Positions 3,492 to 37,854 of a stretch of 64,000 bases of DNA are shown here, piece by piece. The first letter of the stretch is position 1, and every line of letters starts with the position of its first letter. Both the position numbers and the translations under genes were made by a program. The stretch is taken from assembly GCF_003018255.1 (NCBI RefSeq), contig NZ_CP027440.1, one strand, 5' to 3'. The notes under the pieces are model-generated. The model searched no databases and was not told the DNA's origin. It saw only the letters and a program-made list of their open reading frames with translations. The DNA comes from Escherichia coli (GTDB taxonomy: Bacteria; Pseudomonadota; Gammaproteobacteria; Enterobacterales; Enterobacteriaceae).

Positions 3492-4748
3492 ATGACCCTT
3501 TTAGCACTCGGTATCAACCATAAAACGGCACCTGTATCGCTGCGAGAACGTGTATCGTTTTCGCCGGATAAGCTCGATCAGGCGCTTGACAGCCTGCTTG
3601 CGCAGCCGATGGTGCAGGGCGGCGTGGTGCTGTCGACGTGCAATCGCACGGAACTTTATCTTAGCGTTGAAGAGCAGGATAACCTGCAAGAGGCGTTAAT
3701 CCGCTGGCTTTGCGATTATCACAATCTTAATGAAGAAGACCTGCGTAAAAGCCTCTACTGGCATCAGGATAACGACGCGGTTAGCCATTTAATGCGTGTT
3801 GCCAGCGGCCTGGATTCACTGGTTTTGGGGGAGCCGCAGATCCTCGGTCAGGTTAAAAAAGCGTTTGCCGATTCGCAAAAAGGCCATATGAAGGCCAGCG
3901 AACTGGAACGCATGTTTCAGAAATCTTTCTCTGTAGCGAAACGTGTTCGCACTGAAACAGATATCGGTGCCAGCGCTGTTTCTGTCGCTTTTGCGGCTTG
4001 TACGCTGGCGCGGCAGATCTTTGAATCGCTCTCTACGGTGACGGTACTGCTGGTGGGTGCGGGCGAAACCATCGAGCTGGTGGCGCGTCATCTGCGCGAA
4101 CACAAAGTACAGAAGATGATTATCGCCAACCGCACTCGCGAACGTGCCCAAATTCTGGCAGATGAAGTCGGCGCGGAAGTTATTGCCCTGAGTGATATCG
4201 ACGAACGTCTGCGCGAAGCCGATATCATCATCAGTTCCACCGCCAGCCCGTTACCGATTATCGGGAAAGGCATGGTGGAGCGCGCATTAAAAAGCCGTCG
4301 CAACCAACCAATGCTGTTGGTGGATATTGCCGTTCCGCGCGATGTTGAGCCGGAAGTTGGCAAACTGGCGAATGCTTATCTTTATAGCGTGGACGATCTG
4401 CAAAGCATCATTTCGCACAACCTGGCGCAGCGTAAAGCCGCAGCGGTTGAGGCGGAAACTATTGTCGCTCAGGAAACCAGCGAATTTATGGCGTGGCTGC
4501 GTGCACAAAGCGCCAGCGAAACCATTCGCGAGTATCGCAGCCAGGCAGAGCACGTTCGCGATGAGTTAACTGCCAAAGCGTTAGCGGCCCTTGAGCAGGG
4601 CGGTGACGCTCAAGCCATTATGCAGGATCTGGCATGGAAACTGACTAACCGCCTGATCCATGCGCCAACGAAATCACTTCAACAGGCCGCCCGTGACGGG
4701 GATAACGAACGCCTGAATATTCTGCGCGACGGCCTCGGGCTGGAGTAG
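3492..4748 (+). CDS. hemA: Glutamyl-tRNA reductase
   Basis: ORF track 3294..4748; start moved to ATG 3492 ([15 protein letters not shown]..., 418 aa). Confidence 0.93.
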
Positions 4749-4789
4749 CAGTACATCATTTTCTTTTTTTACAGGGTGCATTTACGCCT

Positions 4790-5872
4790 ATGAAGCCTTC
4801 TATCGTTGCCAAACTGGAAGCCCTGCATGAACGCCATGAAGAAGTTCAGGCGTTGCTGGGTGACGCGCAAACTATCGCCGACCAGGAACGTTTTCGCGCA
4901 TTATCACGCGAATATGCGCAGTTAAGTGATGTTTCGCGCTGTTTTACCGACTGGCAACAGGTTCAGGAAGATATCGAAACCGCACAGATGATGCTCGACG
5001 ATCCTGAAATGCGTGAGATGGCGCAGGATGAACTGCGCGAAGCTAAAGAAAAAAGCGAGCAACTGGAACAGCAATTACAGGTTCTGTTACTACCAAAAGA
5101 TCCTGATGACGAACGTAACGCCTTCCTCGAAGTCCGTGCCGGAACCGGCGGCGACGAAGCGGCGCTCTTCGCTGGCGATCTGTTCCGTATGTACAGCCGT
5201 TACGCCGAAGCCCGCCGCTGGCGTGTAGAAATCATGAGCGCCAGCGAGGGTGAACATGGTGGTTATAAAGAGATCATCGCCAAAATTAGCGGTGATGGTG
5301 TATATGGTCGTTTGAAATTCGAATCTGGCGGTCATCGCGTGCAGCGTGTGCCTGCTACGGAATCGCAGGGTCGAATTCATACTTCCGCTTGTACCGTTGC
5401 GGTAATGCCAGAACTGCCTGACGCAGAACTGCCGGACATCAACCCAGCAGATTTGCGCATTGATACTTTCCGCTCGTCAGGGGCGGGTGGTCAGCACGTT
5501 AACACCACCGATTCGGCAATTCGTATTACTCACTTGCCGACCGGGATTGTTGTTGAATGTCAGGACGAACGTTCACAACATAAAAACAAAGCTAAAGCAC
5601 TTTCTGTACTCGGTGCTCGCATCCACGCTGCAGAAATGGCAAAACGGCAACAGGCCGAAGCGTCTACCCGTCGTAACCTGCTGGGGAGTGGCGATCGCAG
5701 CGACCGTAACCGTACTTACAACTTCCCACAGGGGCGCGTTACCGATCACCGCATCAACCTGACGCTCTACCGCCTGGATGAAGTGATGGAAGGTAAGCTG
5801 GATATGCTGATTGAACCGATTATCCAGGAACATCAGGCCGACCAACTGGCGGCGTTGTCCGAGCAGGAATAA
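4790..5872 (+). CDS. prfA: Peptide chain release factor 1
   Basis: ORF track 360 aa; GGQ motif ([10 protein letters not shown]) present. Confidence 0.95.
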
Positions 5873-30684: not shown

Positions 30685-31098
30685 TTATTGCTTGATCAGG
30701 AAATCGTCGAGGGATTTACCTTGCTCATCCATTGCTTTTTTGATTACAGCTGGAGTACGACCCTGGCCAGTCCAGGTTTTAGTTTCGCCGTTTTCGTCAA
30801 CGTAGCTATATTTTGCCGGACGCTGAGCACGTTTAGCTTTGGTGCCAGATTTAACGGCAGCAAGGCTATTCAGCAGTTCGTTCGGGTCAATACCGTCAGC
30901 GATCAGCATTTCGCGATATTGCTGCAGTTTACGAGTGCGCTCTTCAACTTCAGCAGCAGCCGCGCTTTCTTCTTCGCGACGTTCGTTAACAACAACTTCT
31001 AATTTTTCCAGCATTTCTTCCAGCGTTTCAAGTGTACATTCTCTTGCCTGCGCACGAAGAGTACGGATGTTGTTCAGAATTTTAAGTGCTTCGCTCAT
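30685..31098 (-). CDS. hns: Nucleoid-associated protein H-NS
   Basis: ORF track 137 aa [20 protein letters not shown]...; AT-rich 600-bp upstream region. Confidence 0.96.
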
Positions 31099-31701
31099 TG
31101 TAGTAATCTCAAACTTATATTGGGGTGGTTTGTTGAGGTAATAATAGAGCCTTAAATTCAGTTGTGCAATAGCCAGGAATGTAAGGAATTCAAAATTGTT
31201 CTTTATTTTGTGCCGCCAATAAATATCTTTTCATAAAATTAGCCAGAAAAGACGCGGCATATAGCCCTATTTGCGCCGATGATTTCGCAGCACGTGAGGT
31301 TAAAACTTCCTGATTCATGTCACATTTTATGGGGAGATTATCGTAGGCTGACGACCTTTCAGTCTTCTGTATTAGTCGTGTTTACAAGAATTCCCTATTA
31401 AGCGAATGATGAAAAGTAGAACAGTCGCAATAAGAGCAGGGACTTAGTATTGCACTATCTCCTGGAGGTCAACAGAGGGCTATTACTTGCGCAACAGGTT
31501 AAAGATTGTGAATAGTTACCAGCAGTCATTTACCCGCTTATAACAAGCGAGGCAGTTGTAATGATAGCTCAGAAGGATTATGCAAGGCTTCGTAAGGGAG
31601 AACGCATATACCACTTCTGTGCATACTGTTGAGCTGAAAAACTGACGAATTATGATAAACTCCAGCCAACTTTAATTCATATCATTGAGGGCCTGTGGCT
31701 G

Positions 31702-32319
31702 ATGGCACAGCTATATTTCTACTATTCCGCAATGAATGCGGGTAAGTCTACAGCATTGTTGCAATCTTCATACAATTACCAGGAACGCGGCATGCGCACT
31801 GTCGTATATACGGCAGAAATTGATGATCGCTTTGGTGCCGGGAAAGTCAGCTCGCGTATAGGTTTGTCATCGCCTGCAAAATTATTTAACCAAAATTCAT
31901 CATTATTTGATGAGATTCGTGCGGAACATGAACAGCAGGCAATTCATTGCGTACTGGTTGATGAATGCCAGTTTTTAACCAGACAACAAGTATATGAATT
32001 ATCGGAGGTTGTCGATCAACTCGATATACCCGTACTTTGTTATGGTTTACGTACCGATTTTCGAGGTGAATTATTTATTGGCAGCCAATACTTACTGGCA
32101 TGGTCCGACAAACTGGTTGAATTAAAAACCATCTGTTTTTGTGGCCGCAAAGCAAGCATGGTGCTGCGTCTTGATCAAGCAGGCAGACCTTATAACGAAG
32201 GTGAGCAGGTGGTTATTGGTGGTAATGAACGCTACGTTTCTGTATGCCGTAAACACTATAAAGAAGCGTTAGAAGTCGGCTCATTAACGGCTATTCAGGA
32301 AAGGCATCGCCACGATTAA
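31702..32319 (+). CDS. tdk: Thymidine kinase
   Basis: ORF track 205 aa; P-loop NAGKST and zinc-binding Cys pairs. Confidence 0.94.
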
Positions 32320-32587
32320 TAAGAATTTCTTTACTGACAGGGTGAGCAGGGCGCTTTTATCCTGTCAGTTCGTTTTACTCACTTTATCCGGTGTATATAC
32401 CCTTCTCGACAGTTCTTTAACGCCGCTATACCCCTCACAGAGCGCTTTTACAGTGACGTTGACTTGTGACCTGTAAAGTACAATATCGCTGTGTGTAGGC
32501 GTTATACATCGCCGTAAATATGATGCAGGCAAATGCTGTCGGTTTATGGGAAAGTTGCTTTGGGTAAAAAAAACGGCCCCAGAAGGG

Positions 32588-34013
32588 ATAATGCCAGTCA
32601 GTTAAGCAACTGACTGGCTCTTTTTCGGGGCTGTGGGGTATTTCCAGGGCCTCTCCTTTACCACTCTCGGGAAGGCACTTTCCCTTCTTGTCGGTAATTT
32701 CACAAGTTGTCCCATACTTGCAAGATCGCGCATCAGCTCCGGTATACGTCCCGGTGAAGCGCCCTGCAATGTCATCAGCATTCTCATCACCATTCCGCAT
32801 GATTCTGAGAAACTCAGTTGATTCGGCCAGTAACCTTTCAGATGTTCCGCCATTTTAATCATCTGATATCTCACCAGATTATAAGCCAGTAAGACACCCC
32901 ACAGCTCTTGCTCCACAAGCTCCGGCTTTTTACTTCTCAGCGTCAGCCTGCTCAGTTGCATCGTCTGTTTTATCTCCCTGTATCCCAGTTCGATTTCCCA
33001 GCGATGACTGTACAGATCCGCCATTTCTCCTCCGGGGAAGCGCATGGCGTCCGTCATCGACGTCAGCAGATGGCAGACTTTTCCTTTGCGCGTCACGGTC
33101 AGCAGGCGGGCTGTCACTTCATTTCCCAGTCCCGGCCACTTTTTTCGTGCCTGCGGGCTGATGTTCAGCTTCACCAGATGCTCGCCTTTACCCAGTTTTC
33201 TGATCTCTTCATATTGCGCTCCCTTTCTGAGAGGGATCATCCAGTGGCGGTGTTCTCCCGCCTGGCTCCAGGCATTTAACAGTCCTGGTGAGTAATAACC
33301 TTTATCCATTAACGTCAGAGTGTTATCGTCGGTTTGTTCTATAAGTTGCTCAGCAAGCTCATTTTCGCTGTTCTTCATCGTGCCGAAGGCTGCAGTCGTC
33401 AGCAGATGGCTGGTCAGTTCCATCTGGCAGACCATTTTGACCTGCGGGTAGAGCGCCGGGTTCCCGGCATGTGTCTGGCGGGGGAAGGCTGCATTGTTCT
33501 CTGGTGTATCCGGTGTGCGCCAGAACACACCATCGATGGCCAGCAGGGTCAGGCCGCACCAGTGCGGATGCGGCGTGGCGTTATGTCAGAGCTGCGCTGT
33601 TTTCGTGAACACGCGGCGGACAGCCTCAATTCCCAGACGCTGGCGGGTCTGAATAACGGCACTGGGGCAACGAAGGGGCGATTGCCCGGCAGCATGATGT
33701 CCAGGCGATTCACAATCTGGTGAAGAGGTTCTTTACGCTCAAGCGCCATGCCAACAATACACCAGACCATCATTTCGAGGGGAAGACGGCGCTTGCGTAG
33801 CGTTACAGTACCTGATTCGGCAAGGCAACGAGAGATGAGTTCGGGGTCGAGGTAATCCCCCAGAGAAGTCAGTGGGTTACGCAGAGAATCGTAACGGGAT
33901 ACCAGATCAAGAGCCTGTCCAATGTGCATAAAAAAATCCGGAAACAAGTGAGCGTTTCCGGATTCTTACACAGCCACTGGATCGGTCAACTGATCCTTAA
34001 CTGATCGGCATTA
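32588..34013 (-). mobile_element. IS4 insertion sequence with inactivated transposase
   Basis: Terminal imperfect inverted repeats (left taatgccagtcagttaag..., right end reverse complement taatgccgatcagttaag...), flanked by an 11-bp direct repeat ccccagaaggg (32577-32587 and 34014-34024); left boundary uncertain by 1 bp. Confidence 0.85.
32602..33929 (-). pseudogene. insZ: IS4 transposase (InsG-like), disrupted by a frameshift and an in-frame stop
   Basis: Two minus ORFs (33549..33947 and 32602..33528) together cover the IS4 transposase; the first runs out of frame after PFVAP and ends at a TGA where I recall TGG in intact IS4. Confidence 0.8.
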
Positions 34014-34054
34014 CCCCAGAAGGGGCCGTTTATGTTGCCAGACAGCGCTACTGA

Positions 34055-36730
34055 TTAAGCGGATTTTTTCGCTTTTTTCTCAGCTTTAGCCGGAGCGGCT
34101 TCTTTCTTCGCTGCAGTTTCGCCTTCTACATAATCACGACCGTAGTAAGTATCCAGCAGAATCTGTTTCAGCTCGGAGATCAGCGGGTAACGCGGGTTAG
34201 CGCCGGTGCACTGGTCATCGAATGCATCTTCAGACAGTTTATCCACGTTCGCCAGGAAGTCTGCTTCCTGAACGCCAGCTTCACGGATAGATTTCGGAAT
34301 ACCCAGTTCAGCTTTCAGCGTTTCCAGCCATGCCAGCAGTTTCTCGATCTTAGCAGCAGTACGGTCGCCCGGTGCGCTCAGACCCAGGTGGTCAGCAATT
34401 TCAGCATAACGACGGCGAGCCTGCGGACGGTCATACTGGCTGAATGCAGTCTGCTTGGTCGGGTTGTCATTCGCGTTGTAGCGAATAACGTTACAAATCA
34501 GCAGGGCGTTTGCCAGACCGTGCGGAATATGGAACTGGGAACCCAGTTTGTGCGCCATTGAGTGACATACACCCAGGAAGGCGTTCGCAAACGCGATACC
34601 CGCGATAGTTGCTGCACTGTGAACACGTTCACGCGCTACCGGATTTTTAGATCCTTCGTGGTAGGACGCTGGCAGATATTCTTTCAGCAGTTTCAGTGCC
34701 TGCAGTGCCTGACCATCAGAGAACTCAGATGCCAGTACAGAAACATAAGCTTCCATGGCGTGAGTTACTGCGTCCAGACCACCGAAAGCACACAGGGACT
34801 TCGGCATGTCCATAACCAGGTTGGCATCGACAATCGCCATATCCGGGGTCAGCGCATAGTCTGCCAGCGGATATTTCTGACCAGTAGCGTCGTCAGTTAC
34901 AACCGCAAACGGAGTGACTTCAGAACCTGTACCAGAAGTGGTGGTGACAGCGATCATTTTCGCTTTCACGCCCATTTTCGGGAACTTGTAGATACGTTTA
35001 CGGATATCCATAAAGCGCAGCGCCAGTTCTTCGAAGTGAGTTTCTGGATGCTCGTACATCACCCACATGATCTTCGCGGCATCCATCGGGGAACCACCAC
35101 CCAGCGCGATAATCACGTCTGGTTTGAAGGAGTTTGCCAGTTCTGCACCTTTACGAACGATGCTCAGGGTCGGGTCAGCTTCTACTTCGAAGAAGACTTC
35201 AGTTTCAACGCCTGCTGCTTTCAGTACGGAAGTGATCTGATCAGCATAACCATTGTTGAACAGGAAGCGGTCAGTCACGATGAGCGCACGTTTGTGGCCA
35301 TCAGTAATCACTTCATCCAGCGCGATTGGCAGAGAGCCACGGCGGAAGTAGATAGATTTCGGAAGTTTGTGCCACAACATGTTTTCAGCTCGCTTAGCAA
35401 CGGTTTTCTTGTTGATCAGGTGTTTCGGACCAACGTTTTCAGAGATGGAGTTACCACCCCAGGAACCACAACCCAGAGTCAGGGAAGGTGCGAGTTTGAA
35501 GTTATACAGGTCACCGATACCACCCTGAGAAGCCGGGGTGTTAATCAGGATACGAGCCGTTTTCATTTTCTGACCGAAGTAAGAAACGCGAGCCGGTTGG
35601 TTATCCTGGTCAGTGTACAGGCAAGAGGTATGACCGATACCGCCCATAGCTACCAGTTTCTCTGCTTTTTCTACCGCGTCTTCGAAATCTTTAGCGCGAT
35701 ACATTGCCAGAGTTGGGGACAGTTTTTCATGTGCGAACGGTTCGCTTTCATCAACAACGGTCACTTCACCGATCAGAATCTTGGTGTTTTCTGGTACAGA
35801 GAAGCCTGCCAGTTCAGCAATTTTATAGGCTGGCTGACCAACGATAGCCGCGTTCAGCGCACCGTTTTTCAGGATAACATCCTGAACAGCTTTCAGCTCT
35901 TTACCCTGCAACAGATAGCCGCCGTGGGTTGCGAAACGTTCACGTACTGCGTCATAAACAGAGTCAACAACAACAACAGACTGTTCAGACGCACAGATTA
36001 CGCCGTTGTCGAAGGTTTTGGACATCAGCACAGATGCAACTGCACGTTTGATATCAGCAGTTTCATCGATGACAACTGGAGTGTTGCCCGCGCCTACGCC
36101 GATAGCTGGTTTACCGGAGCTGTATGCGGCTTTAACCATGCCCGGACCACCAGTCGCGAGGATCAGGTTGATGTCTGGGTGGTGCATCAGTGCGTTAGAC
36201 AGTTCAACAGAAGGTTGATCGATCCAGCCGATCAGATCTTTCGGAGCACCGGCAGCGATAGCAGCCTGCAGAACGATATCAGCCGCTTTGTTGGTTGCAT
36301 CTTTTGCACGCGGGTGCGGGGAGAAGATAATGGCGTTACGGGTCTTCAGGCTGATCAGCGATTTGAAGATAGCAGTTGAAGTCGGGTTAGTGGTCGGAAC
36401 GATACCGCAAATAATACCGATTGGTTCAGCGATAGTGATGGTACCAAAAGTGTCGTCTTCAGACAGAACACCACAGGTTTTTTCATCTTTATAGGCGTTA
36501 TAGATATATTCAGAAGCAAAGTGGTTTTTGATCACTTTATCTTCGACGATACCCATGCCGGATTCGGCAACGGCCATTTTCGCGAGTGGGATTCGAGCAT
36601 CTGCAGCAGCCAGAGCGGCGGCGCGGAAGATTTTGTCTACTTGCTCTTGAGTGAAACTGGCATATTCACGCTGGGCTTTTTTTACACGCTCTACGAGTGC
36701 GTTAAGTTCAGCGACATTAGTAACAGCCAT
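34055..36730 (-). CDS. adhE: Bifunctional aldehyde/alcohol dehydrogenase
   Basis: ORF track 891 aa [20 protein letters not shown]...; the long + ORF 34562..36379 is its antisense. Confidence 0.96.
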
Positions 36731-37206
36731 AATGCTCTCCTGATAATGTTAAACTTTTTTAGTAAATCATCTGCTCGAATACGAGAGTATAGTCAGTGCG
36801 GTGATGATTTGCTTAACCGATGAAAATCAAAAGCTTACTCGCGCTCACACTCACTGTGATTTACTAAAAGAGTTTAAACATTAGAGTTATTATCTCTAAT
36901 GCGTCACTTCCAGGTGGCGTAAGCAAGATTACTCACTTCTGGGTACTGATTACGTGATCCAAATCAAATTTTTGCAAAGCTGATACCTTTCAGCATCGCT
37001 TTTCGCCATTATAGCTAACAGTTAATAAATTGTAGTATGATTTGTTGGCTACATTAGCATGTTTTGCACAACCAGATAACAATAACGAATGATAGCAATT
37101 TTAAGTAGTTAGGAGGTGAAAAATGCTGTCAAAAGGCGTATTGTCAGCGCGTCTTTTTAACCTTATTTATGGCTAACATTATCCGGCTTTTGCTTCGGAG
37201 CTAACC

Positions 37207-37854
37207 GTGATTCAGACCCTTTTTGATTTTCCCGTTTACTTCAAATTTTTCATCGGGTTATTTGCGCTGGTCAACCCGGTAGGGATTATTCCCGTCTTTA
37301 TCAGCATGACCAGTTATCAGACAGCGGCAGCGCGAAACAAAACGAACCTTACAGCCAACCTGTCTGTGGCCATTATCTTGTGGATCTCGCTTTTTCTCGG
37401 CGACACGATTCTACAACTTTTTGGTATATCAATTGATTCATTCCGTATCGCCGGTGGCATCCTGGTGGTGACGATAGCGATGTCGATGATCAGCGGCAAG
37501 CTTGGCGAGGATAAACAGAACAAGCAAGAAAAATCAGAAACCGCGGTGCGTGAAAGCATTGGTGTGGTGCCATTGGCGTTGCCGTTGATGGCGGGGCCAG
37601 GGGCGATCAGTTCTACCATCGTCTGGGGGACGCGTTATCACAGCATTAGCTATCTGTTTGGTTTCTTTGTGGCTATTGCATTGTTCGCTTTATGTTGCTG
37701 GGGATTGTTCCGCATGGCACCGTGGCTGGTACGGGTTTTACGCCAGACCGGCATCAACGTGATTACGCGTATTATGGGGCTATTGCTGATGGCATTGGGG
37801 ATTGAATTTATCGTTACTGGTATTAAGGGGATTTTCCCCGGCCTGCTTAATTAA
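37207..37854 (+). CDS. ychE: MarC-family inner-membrane protein YchE
   Basis: ORF track 215 aa, GTG start, polytopic hydrophobic; K-12 synteny. Confidence 0.88.
   Translation: MIQTLFDFPVYFKFFIGLFALVNPVGIIPVFISMTSYQTAAARNKTNLTANLSVAIILWISLFLGDTILQLFGISIDSFRIAGGILVVTIAMSMISGKLGEDKQNKQEKSETAVRESIGVVPLALPLMAGPGAISSTIVWGTRYHSISYLFGFFVAIALFALCCWGLFRMAPWLVRVLRQTGINVITRIMGLLLMALGIEFIVTGIKGIFPGLLN

Follow-up and report, generated by a model that had tools for sequence, protein, structure and literature searches.

The window (the whole 64-kb stretch of Escherichia coli DNA that we analysed) carries, between tdk and adhE, a decayed copy of IS4 inserted into the intrinsic terminator hairpin of adhE, and we consider it highly probable that this insertion, the decay of its transposase gene and an IS4-borne hairpin serving as a surrogate adhE terminator together explain the locus. 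The feature itself is an ordinary, decayed IS4 copy and already known, the insertion being annotated in hundreds of RefSeq genomes; as a genome feature it is routine, the IS and its target preference being likewise known. To a joint reading, in which IS4-subgroup elements across the species use the adhE terminator as a landing pad, IS-donated terminator included, we give about even chances.

Identity and decay of the IS4 copy

The element is 1425 bp long (canonical IS4 length, 1426 bp) and aligns over its full length (1426 bp aligned) with the IS4 copy of K-12 (insG, b4278; MG1655 4502090-4503515) at 98.7% identity; end to end, the alignment shows 18 substitutions and one 1-bp deletion. The two copies are alike in length, terminal repeats, gene organisation and 12-bp target duplication, and differ in their site (yjgZ/nanX in K-12, tdk/adhE in the window) and in the 1-bp deletion, the stop codon at W115 and 12 missense changes of the window copy. 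The terminal inverted repeat pattern TAATGCCRRTCAGTTAAG has exactly two matches in the 64-kb window, one at each end of the element (Table 1), with 0 expected by chance in shuffles of the window, and this search found no second IS4 copy in the window. As the original prediction had it, the repeats are imperfect, the two 18-bp arms differing at 2/18 positions (AG vs GA). The end signature of the IS4 subgroup, -AATR... (PMC2266710, Table 1), is present in TAATGCCAGTCAGTTAAG and TAATGCCGATCAGTTAAG at the element ends. Both minus-strand open reading frame fragments (33549-33947 and 32602-33528) match the equivalog NF033592 of NCBIfam, IS4 family transposase (201.7 bits vs a cutoff of 115), and the YREK motif, Y(2)R(3)E(6)K, is found in the repaired translation, its coding sequence being retained beyond the lesions; a single open reading frame for a DDE transposase is indicated at the level of NF033592 and the YREK motif. 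The predicted IS4 identity is borne out, and the idea that the repeats are chance matches, or that the element belongs to another IS family, has next to no probability and is already refuted at the level of sequence by the 98.7% end-to-end identity, the expectation of 0 repeat matches and the score of 201.7 bits against 115.

From the ATG at 33929 (-) the transposase frame reads normally through ...LPGNRPFVAP and is then shifted: past R-P-F-V-A-P (codons 84-89), GCCCCAGT stands in place of GCC CCC AGT, the C5 run having lost one base to give C4, which appears as a run of G on the + strand. Once the deleted base is restored, codon 115 reads TGA, for which K-12 has TGG. A 1-bp deletion after PFVAP and a TGA in place of TGG had both been foreseen, and both lesions are seen in the alignment with intact IS4. 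Relaxed selection is suggested by the proportion of substitutions that alter the protein (13/18), 12 of the changes being missense and additional to the frameshift and the W115 stop. With its frame shifted at codons 88-90 and codon 115 turned into TGA, the copy lacks an intact, potentially active transposase gene and is, judging from its reading frame, unable to make transposase. Since both ends match the 18-bp repeat pattern, mobilisation in trans by an intact IS4 at another genomic site is possible. The earlier view of the element as probably immobile is thus right as regards self-mobilisation, which both lesions abolish, but the ends are intact, and the copy would better be called non-autonomous, not necessarily immobile, as it could be mobilised in trans.

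Among the copies compared, the frameshift is also present in Rb-50, DETEC-S792 and E2348/69 and absent in JNE23-011, CE10, GPEC464 and UTI89, while the TGA at codon 115 occurs in the window and DETEC-S792 only; the DETEC-S792 copy is 99.9% identical to that of the window, with both lesions alike, and its locus is labelled 'IS4 family transposase; frameshifted; internal stop' in RefSeq. The closest genome, JNE23-011 (99.2% over 24 kb), has identical junctions and an intact transposase gene, and the IS4 copies of CE10, IAI39, GPEC464 and JNE23-011 are, unlike that of the window, intact. A further internal deletion, of 281 bp, marks the B2 copies (UTI89, ST131) and UPEC957C, and this gap recurs in E2348/69. 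In other E. coli the same insertion is labelled 'IS4 family transposase' by PGAP. The SNPs of the IS4 copies form a mosaic pattern, suggestive of gene conversion between copies.

Table 1. Features of the tdk-adhE interval, in window coordinates.
Feature	Position	Strand	Remarks
tdk coding sequence	31702..32319	+	convergent with adhE; own terminator-like hairpin at ~32334-32373
Orphaned 3' part of adhE terminator	32566..32576	-	U8 tract (A8 on +) plus CGG of stem base
Left (tdk-side) 12-bp target duplication copy, CCCCAGAAGGGA	32577..32588	.	one mismatch, A at 32588
IS4 element, 1425 bp	32589..34013	-	transposase co-directional with adhE; 98.7% to K-12 IS4; NF033592
IS4 terminal inverted repeat, transposase 3' end, TAATGCCAGTCAGTTAAG	32589..32606	+	0 chance matches expected
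IS4-internal 11-bp hairpin plus TCTTTTTC	32593..32626	+	terminator-like; faces inward from tdk side
Transposase (InsG-type) pseudogene	32602..33929	-	ATG at 33929; original stop 32602-32604
Premature stop, W115 TGG to TGA	33586..33588	-	translation after one-base repair
Frameshift site, C5 run to C4, codons 88-90 after PFVAP	33664..33667	-	K-12 IS4 alignment, translation
IS4-internal hairpin AGAAUCCGGAAAC / GUUUCCGGAUUUU plus U7	33930..33969	-	ends at transposase ATG; predicted surrogate adhE terminator and insulator
Promoter-like site TTGACC-16-TG-AAGAAT in IS end	33962..33989	-	consensus match only; candidate transposase promoter
IS4 terminal inverted repeat, transposase 5' end, TAATGCCGATCAGTTAAG	33996..34013	-	pattern match
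Right (adhE-side) 12-bp target duplication copy, CCCCAGAAGGGG	34014..34025	.	strain comparison
Retained 5' stem base of adhE terminator	34026..34034	-	AAACGG on adhE strand
adhE coding sequence, 891 aa	34055..36730	-	stop codon 41 bp from IS4 end

The adhE terminator as the target of insertion

The element is flanked by a direct repeat, CCCCAGAAGGG (11 bp; 32577-32587 and 34014-34024), and as the IS4 end begins at 32589, an A at 32588 is left over if the duplication is read as 11 bp. Extended by one position, the left and right copies match at 11/12 bases. In other strains the duplication is a perfect 12 bp: UTI89 (B2) has CCCCAGAAGGGG on both sides (G/G at the twelfth position, as in B2 strains), CE10 and IAI39 have CCCCAGAAGGGA on both sides (A/A), and the window, JNE23-011, DETEC-S792 and Rb-50 have ...GGGA on the left and ...GGGG on the right. 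Because the B2 and the CE10/IAI39 copies show perfect 12-bp repeats, we take the duplication in the window to be 12 bp with one mismatch, within the 10-13 bp expected of IS4, and reject a length of 11 bp, which would leave the A at 32588 unexplained; the 11-bp repeat that had been described is present at both ends but is not the whole duplication. The hybrid A/G duplication of the window lineage may be due either to a point mutation or to recombination between the A/A and G/G alleles.

When the element and one repeat copy are removed, the adhE strand reads AAACGGCCCC-UUCU-GGGGCCGUUU followed by a U-run. The full reconstructed stem, AACAUAAACGGCCCC-UUCU-GGGGCCGUUUUUUUU, is 10 bp long and GC-rich (-19.5 kcal/mol, z -5.1) and starts ~22 nt past the adhE stop codon, so that the site before insertion had the make-up of an intrinsic terminator, a GC-rich hairpin and then a U-tract past the stop codon. 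Natural empty sites agree: O157:H7 and BL21 read ...AAAAAAACGGCCCCAGAAGGGGCCGTTTAT..., identical to the predicted hairpin and T-run, and the empty-site strain 19KM1831 carries the GGGA allele. The comparison with strains lacking the insertion thus upholds the original placement of IS4 within the adhE terminator hairpin, split from its U-tract. The centre of the 12-bp duplication coincides with the exact dyad of the hairpin, and IS4 transposed into the terminator through staggered cuts 12 bp apart, centred on this dyad. Because the cuts were so centred, the adhE side keeps the 5' arm and loop, with the 3' stem base and U-tract 1.4 kb away on the tdk side. On the adhE side there is now a CCCC/GGGG stem of 4-5 bp and no U-tract; the U8 tract lies on the tdk side.

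Seven independent IS4 target sites (adhE, raiA/bamD, the K-12 resident site and four more) share an order of A-run, 3-5 bp, a duplicated segment of 11-14 bp, 3-4 bp and T-run, a pattern in support of which De Palmenaer et al. are quoted. The raiA/bamD site, AAAAAAACGG[CAGCTCAAGGGCTG]CCGTTTT, is a second terminator-like palindrome, and the adhE site fits the pattern because a hairpin with an A run on one side and a T run on the other has the motif built in. The case makes plain what draws IS4 to terminators, namely the A-run and T-run on either side, which serve as target arms. The classical target specificity of IS4 (galT, the pheST attenuator and the K-12 resident site) is said to follow 'AAA-N20-TTT', and one classical site is reportedly a terminator/attenuator hairpin too. 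The seven sites compared here show no difference in kind from the classical ones, with an A-run, about 18-20 bp and a T-run, and the 11-14 bp duplication midway.

Occupants of the site across E. coli

Junction queries against 5,426 complete E. coli genomes found the tdk-adhE interval uninterrupted in 2,206 and IS4 at the exact same site and orientation in about 1,137. A further state, named here after the ISZ element of K-12, accounts for up to 1,992 genomes (counted by >=80% of K-12 ISZ, the position behind adhE being checked in MG1655 only). The three states sum to 5,335/5,426, and the uninterrupted site is missing in about 59% of genomes (3,220/5,426). In K-12 MG1655 the occupant is ISZ', with the insZ pseudogene (b4573), which resembles the window IS4 in lying in the exact same hairpin, in the same orientation, as a dead element; it likewise belongs to the IS4 subgroup (-AATG... 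ends) and has a hairpin and U-tract just before its ATG. It differs in its ends (CAATGCC/GGCATTG), in its 10-bp duplication (CCCAGAAGGG), in an internal deletion to about 989 bp and in a highly divergent interior, most of which aligns only with many gaps. We therefore reject K-12 ISZ as a truncated copy of the same IS4, the divergent interiors marking different elements. A full-length ISZ relative on plasmid pJNE21-009_1 has a 10-bp duplication too, so the 10-bp junction of K-12 can be read as the product of an ISZ insertion. The locus also offers an origin for the ISZ' remnant of K-12.

A third length of duplication, 13 bp (CCCCAGAAGGGAC), flanks the IS4 copy of GPEC464. The lengths of 10, 12 (with two target alleles) and 13 bp point, at the level of sequence, to several independent hits on one hairpin, and there appear to have been at least three or four of them: ISZ with 10 bp, IS4 with 12 bp in two target alleles and IS4 with 13 bp. 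It is also conceivable, though we judge it unlikely, that the site is not a hot spot and that a single IS4-family element entered the hairpin once in the distant past, IS4, ISZ and the 10-, 12- and 13-bp junctions having arisen by divergence in place, by small indels and by gene conversion or replacement mediated by the conserved IS ends. All occupants compared share one orientation, ISZ and IS4 have ~94% identity over the 35 bp nearest adhE despite highly divergent interiors, the IS4 copies are visibly mosaic and the window lineage has its hybrid A/G duplication, all of which such a history would accommodate. Against it, however, the plasmid-borne full-length ISZ-type element makes its own 10-bp duplication (ends CAATGCC...GGCATTG), the A/A and G/G duplications each equal an existing empty-site allele, and intact elements are found with 12-bp and with 13-bp duplications.

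We thus prefer repeated insertion to a single ancient event: the locus has the look of a hot spot for recurrent insertion, and a terminator may be supplied by the elements there. Both points go mildly beyond annotation and fit long-known IS4 biology. Among the papers searched, none was found to describe IS4 or ISZ at tdk-adhE, a hot spot there or an IS-supplied terminator.

The IS4-borne hairpin and the predicted ends of adhE transcripts

Directly upstream of the transposase ATG, the adhE strand can fold into AGAAUCCGGAAAC-GCUCACUU-GUUUCCGGAU, a 14-bp stem followed by U7 and AUG; the fold is stable (-23.3 kcal/mol, z -7.0) and is joined to a U-tract. A simple terminator scan called no other terminator-like site on the adhE strand in 32200-34300 and left the IS4 hairpin itself uncalled on the minus strand, which we read as the first U residues being swallowed by maximal stem extension. 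The hairpin would be formed by outside transcripts alone, because the candidate promoter would start transcripts within its 5' arm. IS10/IS50-type elements are reportedly protected from outside transcription by an end hairpin that only outside transcripts form. IS4 is like them in that its own candidate promoter (33989-33962) would start transcripts inside the 5' arm of the hairpin, and unlike them in the U7 that follows, by which the structure would resemble a full intrinsic terminator and not sequestering of the ribosome-binding site alone.

An analogous hairpin coincides with a mapped transcript end in K-12. Within the part of the Term-seq data of Adams et al. (2021, PMC7815308, supplementary file 1) that covers this region, a strong minus-strand 3' end at MG1655 1295324 appears three times with different scores and is classed as 'orphan'; this position falls in the U-tract of the ISZ hairpin, 2 nt before the insZ ATG and 122 nt past the adhE stop. 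The same part of the data (PMC7815308) lists no 3' end in 1295400-1295499. It lists none at the K-12 IS4 copy (45034xx/45035xx) either, an absence that would be informative only if transcripts from outside run into that copy. From these entries we infer that the ISZ-borne hairpin terminates adhE in K-12 and that 1295324 belongs to adhE transcripts, a suggested explanation of the strong 'orphan' 3' end behind adhE.

By the same logic, adhE transcripts in the window lineage would pass the crippled hairpin (a 4-5 bp stem, no U-tract) and run into the IS in sense orientation, and most would stop ~85 nt inside IS4, at the hairpin and U7 before the transposase ATG, with a predicted 3' end about 121-125 nt past the stop codon. 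The read-through into the IS that the original prediction proposed is therefore likely past the split hairpin but, to judge by the IS4 hairpin and the K-12 ISZ 3' end, probably extends over ~85 nt only. The IS4 hairpin would have a double role, insulating the transposase from outside transcription and serving adhE as a surrogate terminator. The insertion would thus swap one terminator for another and is presumed nearly neutral; this would account for the persistence of IS4-type elements at the site in most E. coli.

Two other fates of the transcripts that enter the IS have to be weighed. Rho terminates untranslated RNA, and the RNA of the pseudogene would go untranslated because of its frameshift and stop codon, so transcripts might be stopped mainly by Rho and not by the IS4 hairpin; we regard this as quite unlikely, as the K-12 3' end in the Term-seq entries available for the region is sharp and lies on a hairpin U-tract, as is typical of intrinsic termination. 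Rho might still remove transcripts that escape the hairpin, Rho-dependent and intrinsic termination not being mutually exclusive. Similarly unlikely is full read-through, in line with the original suggestion of read-through into the IS, with adhE transcripts crossing the whole of IS4, sense to the dead transposase gene, and ending at a composite terminator on the tdk side made up of the IS4 end hairpin, residual CCC/GGG pairing and the orphaned U8. The minus strand of 32540-32640 does fold into a compound hairpin directly before U8 (-29.7 kcal/mol), but transcripts would meet the stronger IS4 hairpin and U7 first, and the strong K-12 3' end in the Term-seq entries for this region lies at the analogous ISZ hairpin.

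If termination at the IS-borne hairpin and recurrent insertion both hold, most of the ~59% of genomes whose site is not uninterrupted, K-12 included, would end adhE at an IS hairpin. The 'orphan' 3' end at 1295324 of MG1655, as it stands in the part of the Term-seq record for this region, would then be an IS-donated adhE terminator, and the insertion of an IS4-type element would be a near-neutral 'terminator-swapping' event that makes the adhE 3' UTR ~75 nt longer. The three natural alleles (empty, IS4 and ISZ) provide a test of a native against an IS-borne terminator for adhE mRNA ends, stability and expression, in a gene that is a frequent manipulation target in fermentation engineering.

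An Rfam scan of 31000-37500 returned nothing relevant, with one chance match to SCARNA7 (E 0.28). We also considered that the adhE terminator might be bidirectional and serve tdk as well. Little is likely to hang on this, as tdk is followed ~15-50 nt past its stop codon by a separate hairpin and T-tract, and the portion of the K-12 Term-seq data covering this locus lists a 3' end behind tdk at 1294198 (+) (Adams et al. 2021, PMC7815308).

Transcript ends around the insertion site

In K-12 MG1655, whose adhE terminator hairpin is occupied by ISZ (the insZ pseudogene), the Term-seq data of Adams et al. (2021; PMC7815308) place a strong 3' end, labelled 'orphan', at NC_000913 1295324 (-), which is position 4325 of our MG1655 locus (L003). 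Because this end, within the U-tract of a hairpin internal to ISZ, sits 122 nt past the adhE stop and 2 nt upstream of the insZ ATG, we reasoned that the ISZ-internal hairpin is probably the working K-12 adhE terminator; by analogy, the counterpart of the end in the window would be 33930-33934 (-). On the tdk side, the same data give a K-12 3' end at 1294198 (+), homologous to the tdk hairpin of the window (see table).

Lineages differ unusually strongly in the spacer between tdk and the IS (window 32385-32540): the window and B2 strains are 93% identical there, SNPs are clustered, and E2348/69 has a 19-bp deletion. Identity on the adhE side is 97-100%.

Features on the tdk side, within adhE and at raiA/bamD
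Feature	Location	Strand
tdk terminator-like hairpin, CTGACAGG...CCTGTCAG + TTCGTTTT	window 32334-32373	+
IS4 copy in the raiA/bamD intergenic region	L002 (strain 200164) 4001-5425	
605-aa ORF, GTG start, antisense inside adhE	window 34562-36379	+

Mosaic structure of the IS4 copy

The window IS4 is a mosaic. Its first 330 bp are canonical IS4, over which seven variants are common to the Rb-50 and B2 copies. We compared segment 33396-33663 with JNE23-011 (L021), Rb-50 (L008) and UTI89 (L005): the 1-bp deletion is common to the window and Rb-50, the SNPs at 33629, 33637 and 33648 are common to the window, Rb-50 and UTI89, and the IS4 of JNE23-011, the closest genome, is intact and canonical there. 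This distribution of variants across copies suggests gene conversion among them.

Positions 8-9 of the terminal repeats also vary, reading AG or GA. The window copy is mixed: its two ends (32596-32597 and 34005-34006) differ, one reading AG and the other GA; the B2 and Rb-50 copies carry AG at both ends, and the raiA/bamD copy GA at both.

Targets and orientation

The target of the raiA/bamD copy is another terminator-like palindrome, AAAAAAACGGCAGC-TCAAGG-GCTGCCGTTTT, with a duplication of unusual length (14 bp, CAGCTCAAGGGCTG). Wherever an IS occupies tdk/adhE (window, L001, L003, L005-L009, L014-L016 and L021), the transposase of every IS4 or ISZ occupant is co-directional with adhE, despite a nearly palindromic target. 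Chance, which would give such uniformity about once in 8 for four events, is one possible cause; the others are an asymmetry of the target and selection. The antisense ORF in adhE most likely represents a spurious shadow ORF.
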